Positions 16,007 to 26,525 of a stretch of DNA of 64,000 nt are shown in pieces (the first letter of the stretch is position 1; each line of letters begins with the position of its first letter). Position numbers and translations under genes: made by a program. Source of the DNA: an uncultured delta proteobacterium (GTDB taxonomy: Bacteria; Desulfobacterota; RBG-13-43-22); the NCBI GenBank assembly GCA_963743305.1, contig CAVUPH010000018.1, positions 32,001-96,000 of the forward strand. The letters are read 5' to 3'. The notes under the pieces were generated by a model that worked only from the letters and a program-made list of their open reading frames with translations, made no database searches and was not told where the DNA came from.

Positions 16007-17275
16007 TTAAACCAGACTTTTGACTAATTGGCCTATTTTTTCAAAATCGTCGGTCCCGACCGAGAAGGATAGGCCCGCATTCAGGATTTGTCCGTCTCTG
16101 ACCATCTGTACTTTGATCACCGGGAGAAAATTTCCATCCCACTCCTCCAGTCCGAAGGACACTTGATAGGAAATATCGGCCGGAAAGGGTGGGCCGGCCG
16201 GAAGTGATTCTGTTTGCTGAGCAAAAAAGGTCTCTTTTCCCTGAGGCTCCAGGGGCCGGCAAAACAGACCGCTCCCCTGTTTTAACTGTTCCACGCAGTG
16301 ATTGCAGGAAAGGCAGGCGGCTTTTTGTCGGTCGCCCCTTTGCCAGCGATTGATCAAATCCGGCTCCCGGATAAAGGGCCGGCAGAGGGCGATGAAATCG
16401 GCGGTCCCTTCTTCCAGAAGGCGCCGGGCCGTGGGAAAAGACCGGATCCCGCCCACCAAAATGACCGGGATTTGGAGCTGCTGCTTGAAGGCCCGGGCTT
16501 CGTTTCGGAAAAAGGCCGGGTCTTCCTCGCCGCTGTTTTTATCCCGGAGCAGGTTGGGCAAGTTCAACAGGCCGCCGCTGATCTCCAGGGCATCGACGCC
16601 GGCCGCCTCCAGCCGCCGGCCTACCTGGATGGATTCCTCCAACCGGAGTCCATCCTCGATCAGGTCCCGGCTGTTGATTTTCACCAAGAGGGGGTACTCG
16701 GGGTGAAGCTGTCCCCGGACGGCCTCTGCTACTTCCACCAGGGCCCGGGCCCGGTTTTCTATCGAACCGCCGTACTCATCGCTGCGGGGATTGTAACGGG
16801 GGCAGAGGAGCTGGCTCAGGAAGAAGCCGTGAGCGGCCAGGATCTGAATCCCGTCGAACCCGGCTTGCTCTGCTCGGCAGGCGGCCCGGGCAAAGGCCGT
16901 GCCGACCGCCCGGATATCCTCCGGGGTCATTTGGCTCACCCGGGACCTGGAGAGATAGGCTCCCCCATAATTAAGCTGCAGGACGATCCGGCCGCCCCGG
17001 TCATGGACAGCCCGGGTCAATTGTTGGAGTCCGGGGAGCAGGTCGTCCGAATAACTGCCGAGCTGCCGGGGCGAATGTTTCCCCGAGGGGTGGACATAAC
17101 TATGACCGGTGATGATCAGACCCACCCCACCGTCGGCCAGGGCACGGTACAGATCGATCAGGGGCGCGGTAACCGACCCGTCCTCGGCCGCCATTCCCTC
17201 CCAGGTGGCCGAGCGCACAAAACGGTTTTTTAAGGTCAGGCCGTTTATCCGACCGGGCTCAAACAAGGGTTCCAT
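16007..17275 (-). CDS. NADH:flavin oxidoreductase (old yellow enzyme family) with C-terminal extension
   Basis: LKNRFVRSAT, AGFDGIQILAAHGFFLSQ, YGGSIENRAR, CRPFIREP, CLSCNHC. Confidence 0.9.
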   Translation of the reverse strand: MEPLFEPGRINGLTLKNRFVRSATWEGMAAEDGSVTAPLIDLYRALADGGVGLIITGHSYVHPSGKHSPRQLGSYSDDLLPGLQQLTRAVHDRGGRIVLQLNYGGAYLSRSRVSQMTPEDIRAVGTAFARAACRAEQAGFDGIQILAAHGFFLSQLLCPRYNPRSDEYGGSIENRARALVEVAEAVRGQLHPEYPLLVKINSRDLIEDGLRLEESIQVGRRLEAAGVDALEISGGLLNLPNLLRDKNSGEEDPAFFRNEARAFKQQLQIPVILVGGIRSFPTARRLLEEGTADFIALCRPFIREPDLINRWQRGDRQKAACLSCNHCVEQLKQGSGLFCRPLEPQGKETFFAQQTESLPAGPPFPADISYQVSFGLEEWDGNFLPVIKVQMVRDGQILNAGLSFSVGTDDFEKIGQLVKSLV

Positions 17276-18484
17276 TCACCCTGCTCCTCTTCAATGACCC
17301 GAATGGTCTGGCGCGCGATCTCCAGTCCCTCATCGGTCGGGATGACCAGCACTTTAGTCGGGAGACCTTCCAGGTGTATTTCGGAAATACTCCCGAAGAG
17401 GCCCGGTTTTTTGCTTGATCCACGGCAATGCCCAGGTGTTCCAGTCCCTGGCAGACCTTCTCGCGCATCACCGGAACATTCTCTCCAATGCCGCCGGTGA
17501 AGACGAGGGCATCGATCCGACCGAGGATCGCCACGTAAGCGCCGATATATTTCTTGATCCGGTAGCAAAACAGGTCGGCCGCCAGCCGGGCCCGCACATT
17601 TCCCTGGTTTTCCAGTTCGAGGATTTCCCGCATGTCGCTCACCCCGCCGAGACCTTTGAGCCCGCTCTGGGAATAAAGGAGCCTCTCCAGCTCTTCCGGA
17701 GACATCCCGGTCTCCCGCAGCAGATAGAAGTGCAGGGCCGGGTCGAGGTCGCCGCAGCGCGTTCCCATGACCAGGCCTTCCAGCGGGGTGAGCCCCATGG
17801 AGGTATCCACGCTCCGGCCGTTTTTTATAGCCGTGGCGCTGGCCCCGTTGCCCAGATGCAGGGTGATGACGGTGGTTTCCTCCAGGGCCTTCCCCAGATG
17901 TCTGGCCGCTTCTTTGGCCACAAAATAATGGGAAGTGCCGTGGAACCCATAGCGGCGGACATGAAAGCGCTCATAGAAATCGTAGGGGAGCGCGTAGTGA
18001 TAGGCCTGGGGGGGAAGGGTCTGGTGAAACATGGTGTCAAAGACGGCCACCTGGGGGACCTGGGGAAAGGTTTCCCTGAGAAACTCGATGCCCAGAAGGT
18101 TGGCCGGGTTGTGGAGCGGGGCCAGCGGGATGAGCCGGCGAATAGCGGCGATGACCTGCTCGGTGATCAGGGTCGGTTCCCGGAACAGCTCGCCGCCGTG
18201 GACTACCCGGTGCCCGATGCCGAAAAGTTCCGACCCCCCGGTAATGATCTTATCCCGGGCGTTCACCCGACCGATCAGCTCAAATCCCCGGACGTGATCC
18301 GCCACCGGTTCTCCGTTTTCGAGGGCCTGGAAGGGGCCGTCTTTCGGCGTCGGCGCTGAATCAAACGGGCCTCCGGGCTGCCGATCTTTTCCAGCAGTCC
18401 GCTCGGGAGCAGTCGGCAGCCCTTCCTCTCAAAGACCTCGTATTTGATGGAGGAACTGCCGCAGTTGATTACCAGAAGTTTCAT
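17245..18484 (-). pseudogene. ackA: Acetate kinase split by two frameshifts (error or decay)
   Basis: INCGSSSIK (18484 frame); GHRVVHGG, APLHNP, YGFHGTSH, FTGGIGEN (18305 frame); VIPTDE (17568 frame). Confidence 0.88.
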
Positions 18485-18523: not shown

Positions 18524-19552
18524 CTACGATGGAAACAGGGTTGTGCCGGCGGACCGCAGGTCGCTGACCGCCCGCTTCACCCGCTCGGCCATGGCCCCTT
18601 CCGCTTCGGACAGATAGGTGCGGGGATCGTAGGCCTTTTTGTTGCCCATTTCGCCGTCCACCTTCAGCACCTCGTGGTAATGCCGAAACATATGGTGCAC
18701 GACCTGCCGGGTGAAGGCGTACTGGGTGTCGGTGTCGACATTCATTTTAACCACGCCGTAGTCAATGGCCTCGTGGATGTCGGCCAGTTCCGAGCCCGAG
18801 CCGCCGTGGAAGACCAGGTAGAAGCGGGCCTCCTCGCCGTACTGTTTGACCACCGCTTCCTGACAGTCCCGCAGGATGGAGGGTTTCAATTTGACTGCCC
18901 CGGGCTTGTATACGCCGTGCACGTTTCCAAAGGTGGCCGCCAGCAGGTAGCGGGCCCCTTTTAAGGCATTGAGGCGTCGGGCGACCTCCAGGGTATCCTC
19001 GGGGGTGGTGTAGAGCTTGGCCGAGGCCTCGGCCTTGATGCCGTCTTCCTCCCCTCCGACCACCCCGGCTTCGATTTCCAGAATCAATTCGTTTTTTTGA
19101 AACCGCTCCAGCAGCTTGATGGAAATATCCAGGTTGTCTTTCAGAGGCAGGGCGCTGCCGTCGAACATGTGGCTGCTGAAGAGGTTGGGCCTTCCGGCGG
19201 CCCGCCGCCGCTCCGTTTCCTCCACCAGCGGAAGGACATAGTGATCCAGCTTGTCCGCCTGGCAGTGGTCGGTGTGCAGGGCCACATAGATCGGATAGCG
19301 TTCAGCCGCCCGGTGAACATGTTCGGCGATGGAGATCGCCCCCAGGACCATGTCCTTGACCGACGACCCGGAGGCGAAGGCGGCGCCCCCGGTGGAAACC
19401 TGGATGATACCGTCGCTTTGGCTTTCCGCCAGCCCTTTCAGGACGGCGTTGGCCGTGGTCAGGGAAGTGACGTTGATGGCCGGGTAGGCGAAGCGCCCCT
19501 CACGGGCACGATCGAGCATTTTACAGTAGGTCTGGTAATCGGCAACCGGCAT
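18524..19552 (-). CDS. fbaA: Class II fructose-bisphosphate aldolase
   Basis: YPAINVTS, ALHTDHC, HMFDGS, FGNVHGVYKPG, VFHGGSGS. Confidence 0.95.
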   Translation of the reverse strand: MPVADYQTYCKMLDRAREGRFAYPAINVTSLTTANAVLKGLAESQSDGIIQVSTGGAAFASGSSVKDMVLGAISIAEHVHRAAERYPIYVALHTDHCQADKLDHYVLPLVEETERRRAAGRPNLFSSHMFDGSALPLKDNLDISIKLLERFQKNELILEIEAGVVGGEEDGIKAEASAKLYTTPEDTLEVARRLNALKGARYLLAATFGNVHGVYKPGAVKLKPSILRDCQEAVVKQYGEEARFYLVFHGGSGSELADIHEAIDYGVVKMNVDTDTQYAFTRQVVHHMFRHYHEVLKVDGEMGNKKAYDPRTYLSEAEGAMAERVKRAVSDLRSAGTTLFPS

Positions 19553-21741
19553 GACTTTTCCTTTCTGATGAGGCTAAAAAAGAAATAGCGCTTTCATCTG
19601 GTAAATTCTCTTTATCCCCAAAGGCCATTATCGGGGGTCTGGTGTTCCTTCTGAATCCTTGCGCAATCCGTTCCATCAGGACCACAATCGACCGGGGCTG
19701 CACCGGGTAGGTCGATCCGGAAACAGCCGGGGCGTAGGCCCAAGTGCCGATGTCTTCGGGCGGGTCCAGCGCGGTGTCGATCCAGCGGTGCCAGGCCTTG
19801 CCCTGCAGGTTTTGAACGGGCGGCAGTTCAAAGGTCAGGGGCTCCCAGTAGGCGTTCAACATCATGTGAGTCAAGAGCCGTCCCTGGCGGCTCCAGGCGC
19901 TGAAGGCCAGACTATGAGAATCCGGACCCCAATCAGGCTGGCTGAGCTTGACCCCGTGCCACTGAATCCGGGCCTGTCTGAGGATCTGGCTCAGGGTCAA
20001 CTCCTGGCTGGGGGTGAAGGTGTCCGTGCGCAGGCGGGCCGCGATCAGGCTCTTGACGAAACGGTGCACGTCGGCATGTTCAGCCAGGAGGTCCCAATCA
20101 AACCAACTGATTTCGTTGTCCTGGCAGTAGGCGTTGTTGTTTCCCCCCTGGGTCCGGCGGACCTCGTCGCCCATCAGCAGCATGGGTGCCCCCAGGGACA
20201 GAAGGGTAACGGTCAGAAAGTTCTTTACCTGGCGGTTGCGGATCCTTTCGATTTCCGGGTCGTCCGCTGGGGCCTTCCACCCCGCAGTTCCAACTCAGGT
20301 TGTCGTCGGTGCCGTCGCGGTTCTCTTCGCCGTTGTCCTCGTTGTGTTTGGTGTTGTAGGAGACCAGGTCGTTCAGGGTAAAGCCGTCGTGGCAGGTAAT
20401 GAAATTGATGCTTTGTTCCGGTTCGCGTTCCTGCCCGCCGTAAAGGTCCGGGCTGCCCAGCAGCCGGGAGGCCACCCCGGAAACGGCTGCCGCGGTCGCC
20501 TTTGATAAAGCTCCGCACATCATCCCGGAATTTGCCGTTCCATTCCTTCCAGCTTTCCCCGACAAAGCTGCCCACCTGGTAAAGCCCGGCCGCATCCCAG
20601 GCTTCGGCAATCAGCTTGGTTCCGGCCAGGACCGGGTCGGAATCGATATCCCAGAGGACCGGGGGATTGGCCAGGGGTTGGCCGGTCTTCATCCCGGGAA
20701 AGGATGGCGGCCAGGTCAAAACGGAAGCCGTCCACGTGCATCTCCTTGACCCAGTGGTGCAGACTATCGATGATCATCCGCCGGACGATGGAGTTGCCGG
20801 AATTGAGGGTATTGCCGCACCCGGAATAGTTGGCGTACCGTCCGGTGGCGGCCTCCAGGATGTAGTAGGCCCGGTTTTCAAAACCCCGATAGCAGAGGGT
20901 CGGACCGTCTTCGTGCCCTTCGGTGGTGTGGTTAAAGACCACGTCCAGGATGACCTCGATCCCGGCTCGGTGCAGGGCCTTGACCATATCCCGGAATTCA
21001 TCCAACGGACCGAGGGGGCCTCGGCGGGAGCAGTAACCCCCGTGAGGGGCGAAGAAGCTGACCGGACTGTAGCCCCAGTAATTCTTGAAGCCGGGAGGCG
21101 CGTCCTGTTCATCAAATTCGAAAGACCGGGAGGAGCTCCACGGCGGTGATTCCCAAATCCTGCAGGTAGGGGATTTTTTCGATCAACCCGGCGTAGGTCC
21201 CCCGCTTGTCCACCGCTACACCGGAACTGGGATGACGGGTGAATCCCCGGACGTGCAGTTCATAGATAATGGTATTGGAAAACGGACGCCGGAGTGGGGC
21301 GTCCCCCTCCCAATCGTAAAGGCTCAAATCCGCCACCACGCTTTTCATGGCCGTGGCCGTGTTGTCTCCCGGAAGGCCGGCGGCCAGCCGGCTGTAATGA
21401 GGCGGCGTCACCAAGGCCTTGCCGTAGGGATCCAGCAGAATTTTTTGGCCGTCAAAACGCAGCCCCTTTTCCGGTGCATAGGGGCCGGAGACATGGAAGC
21501 CGTAGATTTGTCCGCAACGCAGGCCGGGGACGAAGACATGCCAGTAAAAATAGGTCCGGTTTTTGTTTGGTTCCAGGAGAATGACCCGGGCCGGTCGGGC
21601 GTCATCGGCCCGGTCGAACAGGAGCAGTTCCACTCCGGAGGCGTTTTTGGAATAGACGCTGAAATTGACGCCTTCCGGGTTGCCAGTGGCTCCGAGGGGG
21701 AAAGCGCTTCCCGGGGGATAGTGATCGCTAGGAGAGTTCAT
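19521..21741 (-). pseudogene. glgX: Glycogen debranching enzyme/isoamylase with several frameshifts
   Basis: [63 protein letters not shown] spread over several frames. Confidence 0.9.
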
Positions 21742-21961: not shown

Positions 21962-22242
21962 ATGAAGACTCTAACGATCACTGACGCCAAAAAAAATCTC
22001 AGCCGGTGGTTGGTCGCCGCCTCCAGCGGCGAAGACATCGGGATTATCTGCGGGGCGGACGATCATCGCCCTGCGCAAAGTCACGGTGGAATCCACGGAC
22101 TACGCACAGCGCGAATACGGTGCGACGCCCGAACAGGTCGCCGCCTTGGAAAAGGCCACGGGACAGACGCTACCGTAAGCTCAAGCTGCTCCGGAGAATC
22201 TGGTCCGTCACGACCGAACAGTTGGGGAAGTTGATTGGCTAA
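21962..22242 (+). CDS. Phd/YefM-like antitoxin, frameshifted
   Basis: MKTLTITDAKKNLS..GEDIGI N-terminus; continues across frameshifts. Confidence 0.6.
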
Positions 22243-22525
22243 ATCGCTCACCCTCGACCCTACCGTGATACGGCGGCTACGGGAGTCTGCAAGACCGAAA
22301 AGGGTGAGTGCCTGCGGGCGTTATCTGAGCTAACCGAAACTTTCGGTCAACCCCATATTCACAGCGGGTTGGCCATTCGTAAATTAGGGAGCAAGCTCTT
22401 TGAATGTCGTGGTAGCTTGGCGTTGCGTTTTATCTTCCAAGACCGGCCCACCGGTCTTTTCGTCTCCTTTTTGGGCAACCACGACGAAATCACAAGCTTT
22501 GCTTAAAAGTGGTAAGTATCGTTGA
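22235..22525 (+). CDS. RelE/ParE-like toxin, frameshifted
   Basis: Manual translation: FGQPHIHSGLAIRKLGSKLFECRGSLALRFIF..LGNHDEI; overlaps antitoxin stop. Confidence 0.55.
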
Positions 22526-22668
22526 ATCTAAATGGTTGATTATCCCCGATTGCCATTATCGGTGACCCAATATTCCCTCTCTGTGCGTCCTGGTAATAAT
22601 CCAACAGAAAAACCTCTGGCTTTGCCGGGGGGCATTCAACTTTTCCCTGAAAATTAAGGTTGGAGGGG

Positions 22669-23715
22669 CTAAGGTTCCAAAAAACATTGCGGGTCTTCCC
22701 CGGTCAGATGGGGACGGCCCCCGGCCCGGGAAAAGGCATAGGCCATGGCCCGGCATCCCCGGCAGGCCGCCCACCGGCGGCAACGGCCGCATTTTCCCTC
22801 GTAACTGTTTCTATCCCTTAGCCGCTCCAGGACCGGGGAGCCGCTCCAAAGTTCACGCAGGGAGTCCCGGCGCACATTTCCGATGGGGACCGGCAACCGG
22901 CGGCAGGGAGTGACCGTGCCGTCGGCCATCAAGGTCAAGCCGGATACCCCGGCCGCGCACCCGCCTTGGGGGAACCCTCCCAGGTCGTTCGGATCAGCGC
23001 CCGACCCCATCTGCCGGTAAAGGGGATCGCCGCTGACCAGTTCCAATCCGTCGGGAGAGAGGGAATGGATTTCCTGATAAAGGTCCCGGACTTGATCCGG
23101 TTTTAACAGCTTGGAAGAGAGCAGGGCACCTTGACCGGCGGGGATCAATCGGGAGAACCCCAGCCGCTGGACTTTTAAGGCCTGGGCCAGGGGAATCATT
23201 TTTAAAAATTGGTCCCGGTTGAGATCGGATAAAGTCGTATTGATGGTCACCGGGATCCCGGCTTCCACTAAGGTTCCGATCCCTTTCAGCGCTTCGGCAA
23301 AACTGCCTTTCCCCCTGAGGGCCTCATGGGTTTCCTCCAGACCTTCCAGACTGATCTGGACTCCCCGAACCGCCAGGCGGCTCAGTCGGCCTGCCCTATC
23401 CCGATCCAGGAGGGTCCCGTTGGTCAGGAGATAAAGGTCAAAACCCCTCCGACTCATTTCTTCGAGAATTAGAAAAAGATCGGAGCGCAGGAATGGCTCT
23501 CCTCCGGTAACATTGATACTGGTCTGGAAGGTCAGGCCATAGATATTTGACCAGTCTGCCAGCATCAGGGTTATCTCGTTCAGGGTTTCTTTGATTTCAG
23601 AGAAAGTTAATTCCTCAAAATGCCCTTTCTCCTGGTAACAGTGGAGACAATGAAGATTGCATTTTTCGGTCAGATGCCATTGAAAAAAGAAATCCAAGGG
23701 ATGGTCGGTTTGCAT
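22669..23715 (-). CDS. Radical SAM/SPASM protein, candidate peptide maturase
   Basis: CNLHCLHC, TGGEPF, LTNGT; SPASM Cys set GCAAG..TPC..CGRC..CRGC..DPQC. Confidence 0.9.
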   Translation of the reverse strand: MQTDHPLDFFFQWHLTEKCNLHCLHCYQEKGHFEELTFSEIKETLNEITLMLADWSNIYGLTFQTSINVTGGEPFLRSDLFLILEEMSRRGFDLYLLTNGTLLDRDRAGRLSRLAVRGVQISLEGLEETHEALRGKGSFAEALKGIGTLVEAGIPVTINTTLSDLNRDQFLKMIPLAQALKVQRLGFSRLIPAGQGALLSSKLLKPDQVRDLYQEIHSLSPDGLELVSGDPLYRQMGSGADPNDLGGFPQGGCAAGVSGLTLMADGTVTPCRRLPVPIGNVRRDSLRELWSGSPVLERLRDRNSYEGKCGRCRRWAACRGCRAMAYAFSRAGGRPHLTGEDPQCFLEP

Positions 23716-23734
23716 TGTTCAGGCCCGTTATCCA

Positions 23735-23890
23735 TTTTCGCATTAAGCCCAAGGTCCGGGGGCGGGTACCCCAAAGCATGAAAATAATGGAGCAGACATA
23801 AACCTACTTGATTGACGTTAGTAATTAATAATCAATTGTTAATTATTAATTGTTAATGAGTACCTATGTGGAGCCGAGTTTATTTACACA
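23735..23890. repeat. Dispersed AT-rich element, family D
   Basis: ATTTTCG(T/C)A(C/T)TAA..GCATGAAAAT modules recurring at about 6685, 31575-31712, 33700, 39368-39440 and 44680-44760. Confidence 0.65.
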
Positions 23891-23901
23891 CCAAGGAGAA
23901 A

Positions 23902-23955
23902 GGCGGATAGGGAGCAGGTTAGCGATGCTTTTTCCCCGCCTCCTCCCTATCCGCC
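23902..23955 (-). terminator. Strong stem-loop between peptide ORF and radical SAM gene
   Basis: 13-bp stem GGCGGATAGGGAG/CTCCCTATCCGCC followed by TTTCT on the minus strand. Confidence 0.65.
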
Positions 23956-23964
23956 CGTTGATTC

Positions 23965-23983
23965 CATTGCTGAACCAGCAATG
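23965..23983 (-). promoter_or_regulatory. Candidate bacterial SECIS hairpin
   Basis: CATTGCTG-GTT-CAGCAATG; G-initiated loop 27 and 18 nt after the two in-frame UGAs. Confidence 0.55.
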
Positions 23984-23984
23984 T

Positions 23985-24107
23985 TTACGATTTTCACCCT
24001 TTTCACTTGTGGCATACTGTTTTGGGACCTTCCTTCGCCGCTGCCTTCATTTTGGCCCAAAAAGCTGCCTCTTTAACCAACCCCTCCGGGTTCATCTTTT
24101 TTTTCAT
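23985..24107 (-). CDS. Putative selenocysteine-containing RiPP precursor, 40 aa (34 aa if the first UGA is a stop)
   Basis: RBS AAAGGAGGTG; MKKKMNPEGLVKEAAFWAKMKAAAKEGPKTVCHK-TGA-KG-TGA-KS-TAA. Confidence 0.65.
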
Positions 24108-24189
24108 CCCTTTTCACCTCCTTTCTTCGGTCAAATCGCCGGTATCGACTTTCGTCTTTATCCGGCATCCGTCCTTCAACCCGCGACCC

Positions 24190-25833
24190 TCAACTTTGCT
24201 CCCCCTTCTCACGGTCCAAATCCATTTGCCGCAGATCCTTGCGCATGATTTTGCCGGTGGCCGTCAGGGGCAGTTCGGCCAGGAATTCGATTTCCCGGGG
24301 GTATTCATGGGCGGCCAGTCGGGTTTTAATAAACTGCTGGATTTCTTCTTTCAGGGCATGCTCGGGAAGTATTCCGGATTTAAGAACGATAAAGGCCTTG
24401 ACGATTTCCCCCCGTACCGCGTCTGGGCTGCCGATGACCCCGGCCAGGGCCACAGCCGGGTGTTTGATCAGGCAATCTTCGATCTCGGCCGGCCCTATCC
24501 GGTACCCGGCGCTGCTGATCAGGTCGTCCTTGCGCCCCACGAACCAGAAATAGCCCTCCTCGTCCTTGCGGGCCAGGTCGCCGGTCAGACTCCAGTCGCC
24601 GATGAACTTGTCTTCCGTGGCCTGGGGGTTGCCCCAGTAGCCCAGAAACATGACCGGGTCGGGCCGCTGGATGGCCACCTCTCCTATTTCTCCCGAGGGC
24701 AGGACCTGTCCTTCTCCATCCACGATCTCCACCCGGTGACCGGGGATGGCCCGACCCATAGAGCCCCGCCGGTTTTCCATGATCTCGGAACAATTGCCCA
24801 CGACCAGGTTTACTTCCGTCTGCCCGTAGAATTCATTGATCGTCAGCCCCATGACCTTGCGGCCCCACTCCAGGAGTTCTTCGCCCAGTGTCTCCCCGCC
24901 GCAGCCGATGGTCCGCATGGCAAAATCGTAACGGTTCCCCGGGTCCGGGACCTGGCGCATGATCTTCAAGGCCGTGGGCGGCATGAAGGCGTTGCGGATA
25001 CCGTATTTGGCGATAAAATGAAAGGCCTGCTCGGGGTCAAACTTTTTTGCCCGAAAGGCGACCACCGGGACCCCGTGGTGCCAGCTCGGCAGCAGGACGT
25101 CGATCAAACCGCCGATCCAGGCCCAGTCGGCCGGTGTCCAATACAGGTCATCTTTTTTGGGAAAAAAATTATGGAAGAACTCCACTCCGGGGACATGGCC
25201 CAGGACTACCCGCTGGGCATGGAGTGCCCCCTTGGGCGGTCCGGTGGTGCCGGAGGTATAGATAATCAAGGCCGGATCGTCGGCCCTGGTCCGCAGCGGG
25301 GTAAAGGAAGGGGATCCCTTTTCCAGGATTTTCCAGAAATCGACCACTCCATCGGGGGGTTCTCCCCGGGTGACGATGAGCGTCTTCAACTCCGGCAAGC
25401 GGTCCTTTATTTCCAGGATCTTGGGGAGATTGTCTTCGTCGGTGATCACCGCCCGGGCGCCGCTGTGACCCAAACGGTATTCCAGGGCCTCGGGTCCGAA
25501 GAGGGTGAAAAGAGGGAGAGCGATCCCCCCGGTTTTATAGATGGCCAGATGGGAGAGGGCCGTCTCCGGGCATTGCGGCAGGAGGATCCCCACCCGTTCC
25601 CCCCGATGCAGGCCGCAGGCCTGCAAGGCGTTGGCCAGGCGGTTGGAGCGCTGTTTGAGGTCCCAAAAGGTATATTTTTCGACCTGCCCCTTATCGTCTT
25701 CGTAGATCAGGGCCAGGCGGTAGCGCTGATCAGCCCACTTGTCGCAGCAATCCACCCCGATATTGTAGAATAGGGGGACTTTCCAGTGGAAGGAGTTATA
25801 GACCTTTTCGTAGGTGTTCCCTTTTTTGAGCAT
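24190..25833 (-). CDS. AMP-forming acyl-CoA synthetase
   Basis: YTSGTTGPPKG, EFYGQTE, TGD, GRKDD, TATGKI. Confidence 0.93.
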   Translation of the reverse strand: MLKKGNTYEKVYNSFHWKVPLFYNIGVDCCDKWADQRYRLALIYEDDKGQVEKYTFWDLKQRSNRLANALQACGLHRGERVGILLPQCPETALSHLAIYKTGGIALPLFTLFGPEALEYRLGHSGARAVITDEDNLPKILEIKDRLPELKTLIVTRGEPPDGVVDFWKILEKGSPSFTPLRTRADDPALIIYTSGTTGPPKGALHAQRVVLGHVPGVEFFHNFFPKKDDLYWTPADWAWIGGLIDVLLPSWHHGVPVVAFRAKKFDPEQAFHFIAKYGIRNAFMPPTALKIMRQVPDPGNRYDFAMRTIGCGGETLGEELLEWGRKVMGLTINEFYGQTEVNLVVGNCSEIMENRRGSMGRAIPGHRVEIVDGEGQVLPSGEIGEVAIQRPDPVMFLGYWGNPQATEDKFIGDWSLTGDLARKDEEGYFWFVGRKDDLISSAGYRIGPAEIEDCLIKHPAVALAGVIGSPDAVRGEIVKAFIVLKSGILPEHALKEEIQQFIKTRLAAHEYPREIEFLAELPLTATGKIMRKDLRQMDLDREKGEQS

Positions 25834-25876: not shown

Positions 25877-26407
25877 TCATTTTACCAGGTCCGCCTCCAC
25901 CTCCAGGTTAAGGAAGACGTCATTCCCGGCCACCAGGCCGCCGTTTTCCAGGCGGACATTCCACTTTATCCCGAAATCCTGGCGCTTGATCCGGGCAGAG
26001 GCCGAAAAACCTAGGCTGATATCCTCATCAAATGGGCTTTTGACCTGGCCGAGGTATTCCGCATCCATGGTGATCGATCGAGTGACGTCCCGAATGGTTA
26101 GATCGCCGGTCACAATAAAGCCGTTGACGGCGACCGGTTCGATCCGGGTACTTCTAAAGCGAATGAACGGGTATTTATCCACTTCCAAAAAATCAGGGCT
26201 GCACAAGTGCTCGTCCCGCTTCGGGATACCGGTATAGATGGAGGCGGCCTCGATCTCGACTTCCACCGAACCCAGGTCGGGTTTGTCCGGATTGAATTGA
26301 AGGGACCCGGAAATCTTGTTGAACTGGCCGCGAACCAGGGTGATCATGAAGTGCCGGACGGTAAAAGTGGCCACGGTGTGATCAGGGTCAATTTTCCACT
26401 CAGACAT
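25877..26407 (-). CDS. YceI family protein
   Basis: WKIDPDHT, RDEHL.SPDF, GDLTIRDVT, RQDFGI. Confidence 0.9.
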   Translation of the reverse strand: MSEWKIDPDHTVATFTVRHFMITLVRGQFNKISGSLQFNPDKPDLGSVEVEIEAASIYTGIPKRDEHLCSPDFLEVDKYPFIRFRSTRIEPVAVNGFIVTGDLTIRDVTRSITMDAEYLGQVKSPFDEDISLGFSASARIKRQDFGIKWNVRLENGGLVAGNDVFLNLEVEADLVK

Positions 26408-26525
26408 AGAAACCTCCTTGAAATTCCATTTGCCAACAACTAGAGGAAAGTTTAACATAGTTTAAAAAAAGTTTCTAGTCCAGCGGCTCGACCCTGTTGT
26501 AAAAATATTGATACCATTGATATAG

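Follow-up and report, generated by a model that had tools for sequence, protein, structure and literature searches.

We analysed a stretch of 64,000 nucleotides from an uncultured delta proteobacterium (GTDB lineage Bacteria; Desulfobacterota; RBG-13-43-22; assembly GCA_963743305.1, contig CAVUPH010000018.1, positions 32,001 to 96,000), referred to as a whole as the window. On its minus strand lie, one after the other, a small peptide gene with two in-frame UGA codons, a hairpin of the selenocysteine insertion sequence (SECIS) type, an intrinsic terminator and the gene of a radical SAM/SPASM enzyme. The peptide gene (23985–24107) has 40 sense codons, from an ATG at 24105–24107 to a TAA at 23985–23987, and a Shine–Dalgarno sequence, AAAGGAGGTG, could be read directly at 24115–24124, 7 nt before the ATG. 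With TGA translated as U, for selenocysteine (Sec), the product has 40 residues, MKKKMNPEGLVKEAAFWAKMKAAAKEGPKTVCHKUKGUKS. A leader (residues 1–31), with the motif EAAFW and the invariant residues E13, A14 and W17, precedes the core C32-H-K-U35-K-G-U38-K-S, whose conserved form is C-x-K-U-x-x-U-K-x. The Cys32 codon (TGC, 24012–24014) is the first of three chalcogen residues found at every third position, the others being encoded by UGA1 (24003–24005, Sec 35) and UGA2 (23994–23996, Sec 38).

The hairpin (23965–23983) is located wholly in the 3′ untranslated region (UTR), beginning 3 nt past the stop codon. The arms of its 8-bp stem (23976–23983 and 23965–23972) enclose the loop GUU (23973–23975), which starts at +31 from the U of UGA1 and at +22 from that of UGA2, and its fold of −10 kcal/mol (z = −4.15) was matched by none of 200 shuffled sequences. 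The terminator (23895–23956) consists of a long interrupted stem (23901–23956, outer 14 bp) and a U-rich run; the stem-loop folds at −37.4 kcal/mol (z = −5.01), again with none of 200 shuffles as good. The enzyme gene (22669–23715) is co-oriented with the peptide gene and encodes 348 amino acids. Most of this arrangement had been proposed from the sequence alone, in what we call the original prediction, and re-reading the sequence bore it out: the ribosome-binding site, the ATG, the Cys, the two UGAs and the stop are all in place, the Cys/UGA register does run through every third residue, the 8-bp hairpin has its G-initiated loop 27 and 18 nt beyond the UGAs, and a second stem-loop stands before the enzyme gene (23901–23956, z = −5.01). 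The absence of an adjacent transporter or protease was likewise found at the locus.

Conservation of the peptide, its UGA codons and its hairpin

With the window enzyme as query, 16 orthologous loci (L015–L030, enzyme identity 47–100%) were retrieved from 41 related genomes, and in all 16 the same small open reading frame (ORF), of the form C-[HR]-K-U-[KE]-[GS]-[U or C]-K-S, stands upstream of the enzyme. For a wider scan, an alignment of the enzyme was compared with one genome per species (185,579 species); 346 relatives were confirmed and the best 80 loci among them were examined. These best 80 of 346 come from metagenome-assembled genomes classified as delta proteobacterium, Thermodesulfobacteriota, Desulfobaccales, Desulfobulbia, Geobacteraceae, Nitrospirota/Thermodesulfovibrionales and Deferribacteres. 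In 68 of them a peptide gene with its two TGAs lies no more than 1 kb upstream of the enzyme, on the same strand; of the other 12, three end at a contig edge (L049, L056 and L105), L049 retaining both hairpins. The search was also run from the peptide, with an alignment of it against a sample of 401 genomes of the window's phylum. Matches were obtained in 21 genomes, one in each, and every one of them had the two TGAs (21/21) and the enzyme directly downstream on the same strand (21/21). The peptide model carries Cys at the Sec columns, so that an all-Cys form should score at least equally, and none was found among these 21 matches. The core C-x-K-U-K-x-U-K-x is kept in every row of alignment A3 while the leader is more variable, and each genome has one copy of the peptide. 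The original prediction had expected that homologues of the enzyme would be preceded by the same peptide with both UGAs retained, as they are in the three samples above (16/16, 68/80 and 21/21). It had also expected an interchange of Cys and TGA, which proved rare: L028, with TGC at the second Sec site, is the sole locus with a change from Sec to Cys.

On the evidence of sequence conservation in other genomes, which carries most of the weight here, the peptide gene is more than a chance reading frame, and the peptide–enzyme family spans at least Desulfobacterota and Nitrospirota. A protein search yielded 1740 enzyme clusters at E ≤ 1e-60 among 8000 candidates scored. Gene callers end the ORF at the first UGA, and the protein collection accordingly contains the peptide in no other form than a 34-residue ‘hypothetical protein’, in three clusters; none of the NCBIfam peptide models, with E up to 10, and no Pfam family matched it. 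Two copies of the module were seen near opposite ends of one 67.6-kb contig, in opposite orientation (L039 and L040), and could be a duplication or an assembly artefact.

The codons around the UGAs were analysed in 82 collected rows, in which some genomes occur twice (71 distinct sequences over the 80-nt region). In these rows the Cys, Lys34, both TGAs and Lys39 were set by the collecting pattern and are not proof by themselves, yet they were recovered in the independent searches. The Cys32 codon, thus fixed in position, is TGC in 63 rows and TGT in 19. The codon following UGA1 specifies Lys in 81 of the 82 rows (AAA 9, AAG 72), and the second codon past it Gly, Ser, Ala, Glu or Lys. After UGA2-Lys the codon is one for Ser in 74 rows (TCN 29, AGY 45), for Thr in 6 and for Asn in 2. 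Since the codons left free by the pattern show a constraint at the protein level, which includes two unrelated families of Ser codons, translation appears to proceed past both UGAs, and the product is almost certainly a real Sec-containing peptide. In many Nitrospirota loci (e.g. L047, L051, L058 and L063) a third TGA was observed after K-S, 1–3 nt from the SECIS stem and sometimes directly followed by TAG or TAA. Being too near the stem for the hairpin to act on it, this third TGA is read as the stop codon of the peptide.

The stem of the hairpin is kept through compensatory changes, as the original prediction had anticipated. Across the 71 distinct sequences, 98.6% of the 426 cells of a six-pair stem are paired, and in 40 cells, spread over five of the six pairs, both sides have changed. 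Out of 500 shuffles, none equalled these values of pairing and covariation, and slid registers were paired to 16–61%. The loops begin with G across the loci (GGUC, GGUCA, GGUUC and GUU). The start of the window loop at +22 from UGA2 is the same as in the computed hairpin of this genome's UGA-containing FdhA gene (C40), and a second FdhA gene (C6) shows this spacing by eye. Both +22 and +31 fall inside what we take to be the range of bacterial SECIS predictors. Rfam, searched with E up to 10 over 22000–25000, returned no SECIS family and weak chance matches only, and a genome-wide regular expression for look-alike hairpins hit nine places, none of them informative. To judge from its covariation and spacing, the single hairpin is a bacterial SECIS element.

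The genome also holds most of the machinery needed for Sec insertion. A selB gene was detected with 363.5 bits, selD above its cut-off and with an in-frame TGA of its own, and a tRNA-Sec at C6. Four matches to the alpha subunit of formate dehydrogenase (Fdh-alpha) contain one in-frame TGA each (C40:32119–34125, C40:29827–30570, C34:11740–12498 and C6:206733–207539), so the genome should encode several other selenoproteins. The complete set that the original prediction had called for was therefore recovered in part, selB, selD and tRNA-Sec being found here and selA only in congeners and other carriers (5/5 other carrier genomes, all three congeners included). The selD gene (C26:75850–76774) is split into two overlapping pieces; in the window, glgX (19521–21741) is spread over at least three frames and ackA (17259–18484) lacks its first approximately 70 residues in frame. 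These broken genes are either assembly indel errors or pseudogenes.

The enzyme and its predicted complex with the peptide

The enzyme matches the Pfam families Radical_SAM (PF04055, 81.2 bits) and SPASM (PF13186, 40.7 bits), and otherwise only Fer4_12. Its CX3CX2C motif begins at residue 19, which leaves no room for an N-terminal domain; a radical SAM/SPASM enzyme devoid of any obvious N-terminal recognition element (RRE) of peptides made on the ribosome and modified after translation (RiPPs) is also what the original prediction had described. Ten cysteines are invariant in 14 orthologues, namely C19, C23 and C26 for the SAM cluster and C253, C271, C309, C312, C318, C321 and C344 in the SPASM part. 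With seven Cys ligands for two auxiliary clusters, one iron would stay open.

No NCBIfam model reached its cut-off. The best, AhbD, scored 172.3 of the 500 bits required, followed by SbtM (161.6 of 350), MftC (132 bits), StsB (98.2 of 625), PqqE (78.6) and PapB (68.6 of 340). An assignment to AhbD was rejected on this score, a true AhbD (541.7 bits) being encoded elsewhere (C14:169629–170645). SbtM was set aside too, as the alignment covers only model positions 199–515 of 516, and so were PapB and StsB (NF047865 and NF045574), with scores far under their curated cut-offs. The tree did not show the grouping with heme enzymes that the original prediction had considered; it places AhbD, together with the weak hits of relatives, in a clade outside the peptide-linked family (support 91/80, branch length 0.72). 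Public homologues bear generic names or, in several entries from one source, ‘AdoMet-dependent heme synthase’. This label is doubtful because the true AhbD is encoded elsewhere in the genome, and it is probably a wrong name for the peptide-linked enzyme family. Among solved structures the closest is SkfB (E = 1.1e-17, core only), then MoaA, PqqE and CteB, none of them close.

The window enzyme was modelled together with the 34-residue peptide obtained under genetic code 11, without alignments and without clusters. The predicted interface score (ipSAE), which is a confidence of the model and not a measurement, was 0.88 in three runs versus 0.02 for the best of three controls; the mark applied to this score is reached by 51 of 78 solved complexes and by 2 of 108 mismatched pairs. 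Between the runs, at least 76% of the contacts coincide, and the predicted local distance difference test value (pLDDT) of the partner is at least 69. Contacts of lowest predicted error join E13, A14, F16 and W17 of the peptide to W55, Y59, R287 and W290 of the enzyme, and residues 26–34 of the modelled peptide come near enzyme residues 228–231 and 248–254, C271 and C321. Most of these residues are invariant (E13, A14 and W17 in the peptide; W55, R287, W290, C271 and C321 in the enzyme), Y59 is nearly so and F16 is not. The model supports a binding of the peptide leader by the enzyme, and the peptide is very likely a functional partner of this enzyme.

Possible mode of action and rival explanations

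The reading that we favour, and which we hold to be probable by a modest measure, is that of a conserved two-gene module, in which a di-Sec peptide is modified in its core by a leader-binding SPASM enzyme. One SelB-type SECIS just past the stop codon would direct the insertion of Sec at both UGAs; its distance from UGA2 is the canonical one, and UGA1 lies another 9 nt away. The strong terminator would give rise to a short, separate peptide transcript. Metatranscriptome contigs from two runs of two studies (23928–24131 with 5 differences and 23937–24131 with 15 differences) fit such a transcript, contigs of RNA libraries being no proof of transcription: they span the peptide gene with its SECIS and reach into the terminator. 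The same two runs cover the enzyme gene with only a 38-base piece in X14 (22736–22773), stretches without cover carrying no weight as evidence, and one DNA run extends beyond 24131. The minimal enzyme, which has no separate recognition domain, would bind the helical leader (EAAFW) directly, and this binding would set the core C-x-K-U-K-x-U-K-S at the auxiliary iron–sulfur clusters. There, a Cys or Sec side chain might ligate the open iron of auxiliary cluster I, and a 5′-deoxyadenosyl radical might abstract a hydrogen from the core; a C–S or C–Se bond (a crosslink), or an oxidation of a beta-carbon of the SbtM/anSME type, would then be formed. A radical modification of the core, whatever its kind, seems likely to us. 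Thio- or seleno-ether links in particular are a tentative suggestion, made by analogy. SPASM maturases have been described as accepting Sec, binding it to the cluster iron and forming selenoethers, and the seven-Cys arrangement of PapB was read as an open iron that takes the Cys or Sec of the substrate (both in the available part of PMC10177961). A natural Sec peptide is modified by SbtM, according to the available part of PMC9204691.

The invariant core, the single copy and the absence of a travelling protease or exporter suggest an intracellular, selenium-dependent, cofactor-like product. Accordingly, the product is most likely an intracellular cofactor-like peptide rather than a secreted antibiotic. 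A bolder form of this idea, which we regard as rather unlikely, makes the peptide the precursor of an obligately selenium-dependent ribosomal cofactor, whose C-x-x-U-x-x-U site is matured by the RRE-less, leader-binding SPASM enzyme. Maturation might then consist in selenoether crosslinks, in a seleno-heterocycle, or in the capture of a metal or tetrapyrrole via C-x-x-U-K and U-x-x-U-K. Such a cofactor would be common to sulfate-reducing Desulfobacterota and Thermodesulfovibrionales, with both Sec residues coming from a single SECIS in the 3′ UTR.

Several observations weigh against a peptide-modifying module. On the side of Sec insertion, selA was not found by two models in the 90%-complete assembly (G000), and UGA1, at +31, lies 9 nt beyond the spacing of the FdhA genes; some of the product may stop at residue 34. 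Some copies of the peptide gene deviate: a TAA replaces the second Sec codon in L091, L110 has a degenerate ORF with a TAA in place of the first Sec codon, and L053 keeps a remnant from which the leader is deleted. In six of the 80 enzyme loci there is no peptide gene nearby; five of these six genomes were searched whole, and all five, in favour of the partnership, do encode the di-TGA peptide, its gene lying with SECIS and terminator at a distant place ahead of unrelated genes. Even where the two genes adjoin they are divided by the terminator and do not always form an operon. On the side of the enzyme, the peptide-linked family is not separated in the tree from three long-branch paralogues, and the complex was predicted for a peptide that ends before both Sec residues and for an enzyme stripped of its clusters, with a score that expresses model confidence. 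Finally, no gene for a protease, an exporter or an RRE adjoins the locus or is conserved across the 80 loci, and an invariant core without these three is atypical for natural-product RiPPs.

Much of this would suit a finished small selenoprotein that stays unmodified and is used by the enzyme as an accessory subunit or donor, an explanation that we consider unlikely. Its C-x-x-U-x-x-U triad could bind a soft metal or metalloid or an iron–sulfur cluster, or serve as a redox or selenium-donor partner. An invariant core behind a variable leader, one copy per genome, the lack of a conserved protease or exporter, and a peptide gene with a terminator of its own and, in five genomes, no linkage to the enzyme all speak for it, as does the absence of a Cys-only form in 401 genomes, which suggests that selenium itself is required. 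Other short selenoproteins with a Sec near the C-terminus are discussed as metal ligands in the available part of PMC13188914. However, the peptide co-occurs strictly, at the level of genomes, with one family of SPASM enzymes, and the model predicts a leader-type binding that brings the core end to the SPASM cysteines. The two auxiliary clusters moreover have seven, not eight, invariant Cys, for which the open iron of PapB offers a comparison (PMC10177961, in part). As an unmodified selenoprotein would also be expected to bind the enzyme, only the chemistry separates it from the modified peptide.

The three other explanations are of far lower probability. The enzyme could be an AhbD-related tetrapyrrole enzyme and the peptide an attachment site for heme or another tetrapyrrole, giving a selenoether-linked heme peptide. 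The overlapping C-x-x-U-K and U-x-x-U-K presumably resemble the CXXCK variant of heme-binding sites, both Sec residues are nearly always followed by a Lys, the highest-scoring NCBIfam model is AhbD (172.3 bits) and some sources name the homologues ‘AdoMet-dependent heme synthase’. We nevertheless judge this very unlikely, as the score is far under the AhbD cut-off of 500, the true AhbD (541.7 bits) is encoded elsewhere and, with its kin, occupies a separate clade (91/80, branch length 0.72), and the peptide lacks the signal peptide that cytochrome c maturation in the periplasm would call for. Alternatively, the ORF might be a cis-acting, selenium-sensing leader without a functional product, in which pausing or termination of ribosomes at the UGAs controls the terminator and the enzyme gene. 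The order of the elements (a short ORF with tandem special codons, a hairpin, a terminator and a gene) is indeed that of an attenuator. But across phyla the residues of the leader are constrained as protein sequence, the leader is predicted to bind to the enzyme, inspection by eye (not computation) showed no alternative pairing of the two hairpins that could act as an antiterminator, and in the five genomes with unlinked genes the peptide gene, SECIS and terminator stand far from the enzyme, before unrelated genes; such a role is highly improbable. Hardly any credence is left for an ORF that ends at the first UGA, with 34 residues, no Sec and a hairpin of ordinary RNA structure. Gene callers do stop there, leaving the three 34-residue ‘hypothetical protein’ clusters, selA is missing from the 90%-complete assembly and L110 has a TAA at the first position. 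Against this stand the Lys, x, TGA, Lys and Ser kept past UGA1 with synonymous changes and TCN/AGY variation, the Cys at the second site of L028, the covarying hairpin with its loop at the FdhA spacing from UGA2, and the presence of Sec machinery and UGA-containing fdhA genes.

Neighbourhood, related systems and significance

A hairpin similar to the terminator follows the SECIS in nearly all loci, among those listed. The base of its stem is alike across phyla (roughly GGCRGRTR...YAYCYGCC) and its top varies freely, a conservation that exceeds the need of a plain terminator. A consensus scan for promoters and terminators gave no more sites than in shuffled sequences and missed this long terminator. 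Between the terminator and the enzyme gene, at 23820–23860 on the minus strand, an AT-rich motif of 34 nt proved to be a dispersed repeat, represented on 18 of the genome's contigs by 23 copies with no more than 5 substitutions each. It is also the only piece matched by unrelated contigs of three sequencing runs, and it could serve as a site for a regulator or be a small repeat element. Small parts of the window are shared by 20 sequencing runs; as no run holds half of its words, no claim is made on habitat.

The neighbours of the module in the window are an acyl-CoA synthetase, a YceI-like gene, an ABC-F ATPase, the fragmented glgX and genes of central metabolism; apart from the peptide and enzyme genes, none is conserved throughout the 80 loci. 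The acyl-CoA synthetase (24190–25833) was rejected as a component, being a neighbour only within the window's own genus, as were ABC-F, MFS and BrkB-like genes, each present in at most 14 of the 80. Two families are more loosely associated. A YceI-like gene (here 25877–26458, minus strand) occurs near the enzyme in 18 of the 80 loci, the window included, and directly after it on the same strand in 13. A PEMT/ICMT-like membrane methyltransferase occurs in 19 loci and directly follows the enzyme on the same strand in 17. Both families, whose members directly after the enzyme were seen in loci from L043 to L109, are linked to lipids or isoprenoids, and a role of either in the system is possible.

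Among known systems, the PqqA/PqqE and MftA/MftC pairs combine a SPASM enzyme acting on a precursor with an intracellular product, and depend on an RRE partner of the PqqD type as well as on additional genes for tailoring or for a peptidase. PqqA and MftA resemble the present peptide in being very short precursors with an invariant C-terminal core and one copy per genome. The invariant core, the single copy and the lack of export genes resemble such peptide-cofactor systems more than antibiotics. Unlike our module, these pairs are free of selenium; the window enzyme scores under their cut-offs, and no RRE, tailoring or peptidase genes are conserved beside it. The maturases of PapB ranthipeptides, of SCIFF peptides (Tte1186/CteB) and SkfB likewise unite a radical SAM core and a SPASM domain. 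Thioether-forming SPASM maturases, in which an open iron of auxiliary cluster I probably takes the substrate Cys as a ligand, use Asp, Glu or Thr acceptors, whereas the window core has none of these three residues. The natural substrates of PapB/CteB/SkfB-type systems carry Cys, not Sec, and the window enzyme differs from them in having no N-terminal RRE. From synthetic Sec peptides, PapB and Tte1186 do make selenoethers (PMC10177961, in part).

AhbD (TIGR04545) and NirJ-type enzymes share the minimal architecture of approximately 340 residues, and AhbD aligns with the window enzyme from end to end; unlike the latter, AhbD has no peptide partner. The UXX-star selenoproteins also have a Sec three residues before the stop and a SECIS in the 3′ UTR, and their models NF041114 and NF041211 did not match the window peptide. 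Sec pairs with UxxU spacing are listed for several predicted selenoprotein families in the available part of PMC13188914, which describes no radical SAM/SPASM partner for UXX-star or UxxU selenoproteins.

The closest known system is SbtA/SbtM (‘selenobiotic’; TIGR04082), in which a Sec peptide, a SECIS and a radical SAM enzyme lead to a thio(seleno)oxazole (PMC9204691, in part). Both systems have a ribosomal peptide with UGA-encoded Sec (probably at least two in SbtA, as far as the same source goes), a SECIS right after it and a paired radical SAM/SPASM enzyme; SbtM acts on Cys or Sec (PMC9204691, in part). The present module is similar in its working and is not a member, since the tests of the peptide motif and of the enzyme model both fail. 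The Sec of SbtA lies in a GGUG motif (PMC9204691, in part) and those of the window peptide in K-U-K and x-U-K, so that the original prediction's view of a peptide unlike the ‘selenobiotic’ ones of Geobacter holds; and the window enzyme aligns with the C-terminal 317 positions of the SbtM model, lacking the first approximately 198. The range differs as well: SbtA/SbtM is described as limited to Geobacter and ‘Desulfbacteria’ in the available part of PMC9204691, and is thus narrower than the present family, which is also found in Nitrospirota/Thermodesulfovibrionales.

In the literature searched we found no description of the di-Sec peptide, though one may exist elsewhere. There, SbtA/SbtM was the only natural Sec peptide with a radical SAM maturase that we met (PMC9204691, in part), and the module described here has the appearance of a second family of modified peptides with selenium, and of a widespread one. 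It has been hidden from annotation, the ORF being called to the first UGA only and the enzyme named generically or as a ‘heme synthase’. The module provides a compact natural test case for one SECIS serving two UGAs nine bases apart, and shows how an RRE-less SPASM enzyme may recognize a leader; both genes are small enough for direct co-expression and mass spectrometry. Cys variants are nearly absent; such a retention of Sec is uncommon among selenoprotein families and suggests a chemistry that requires selenium. If the cofactor interpretation were true, the product would be the first peptide cofactor with selenium in core anaerobic metabolism.

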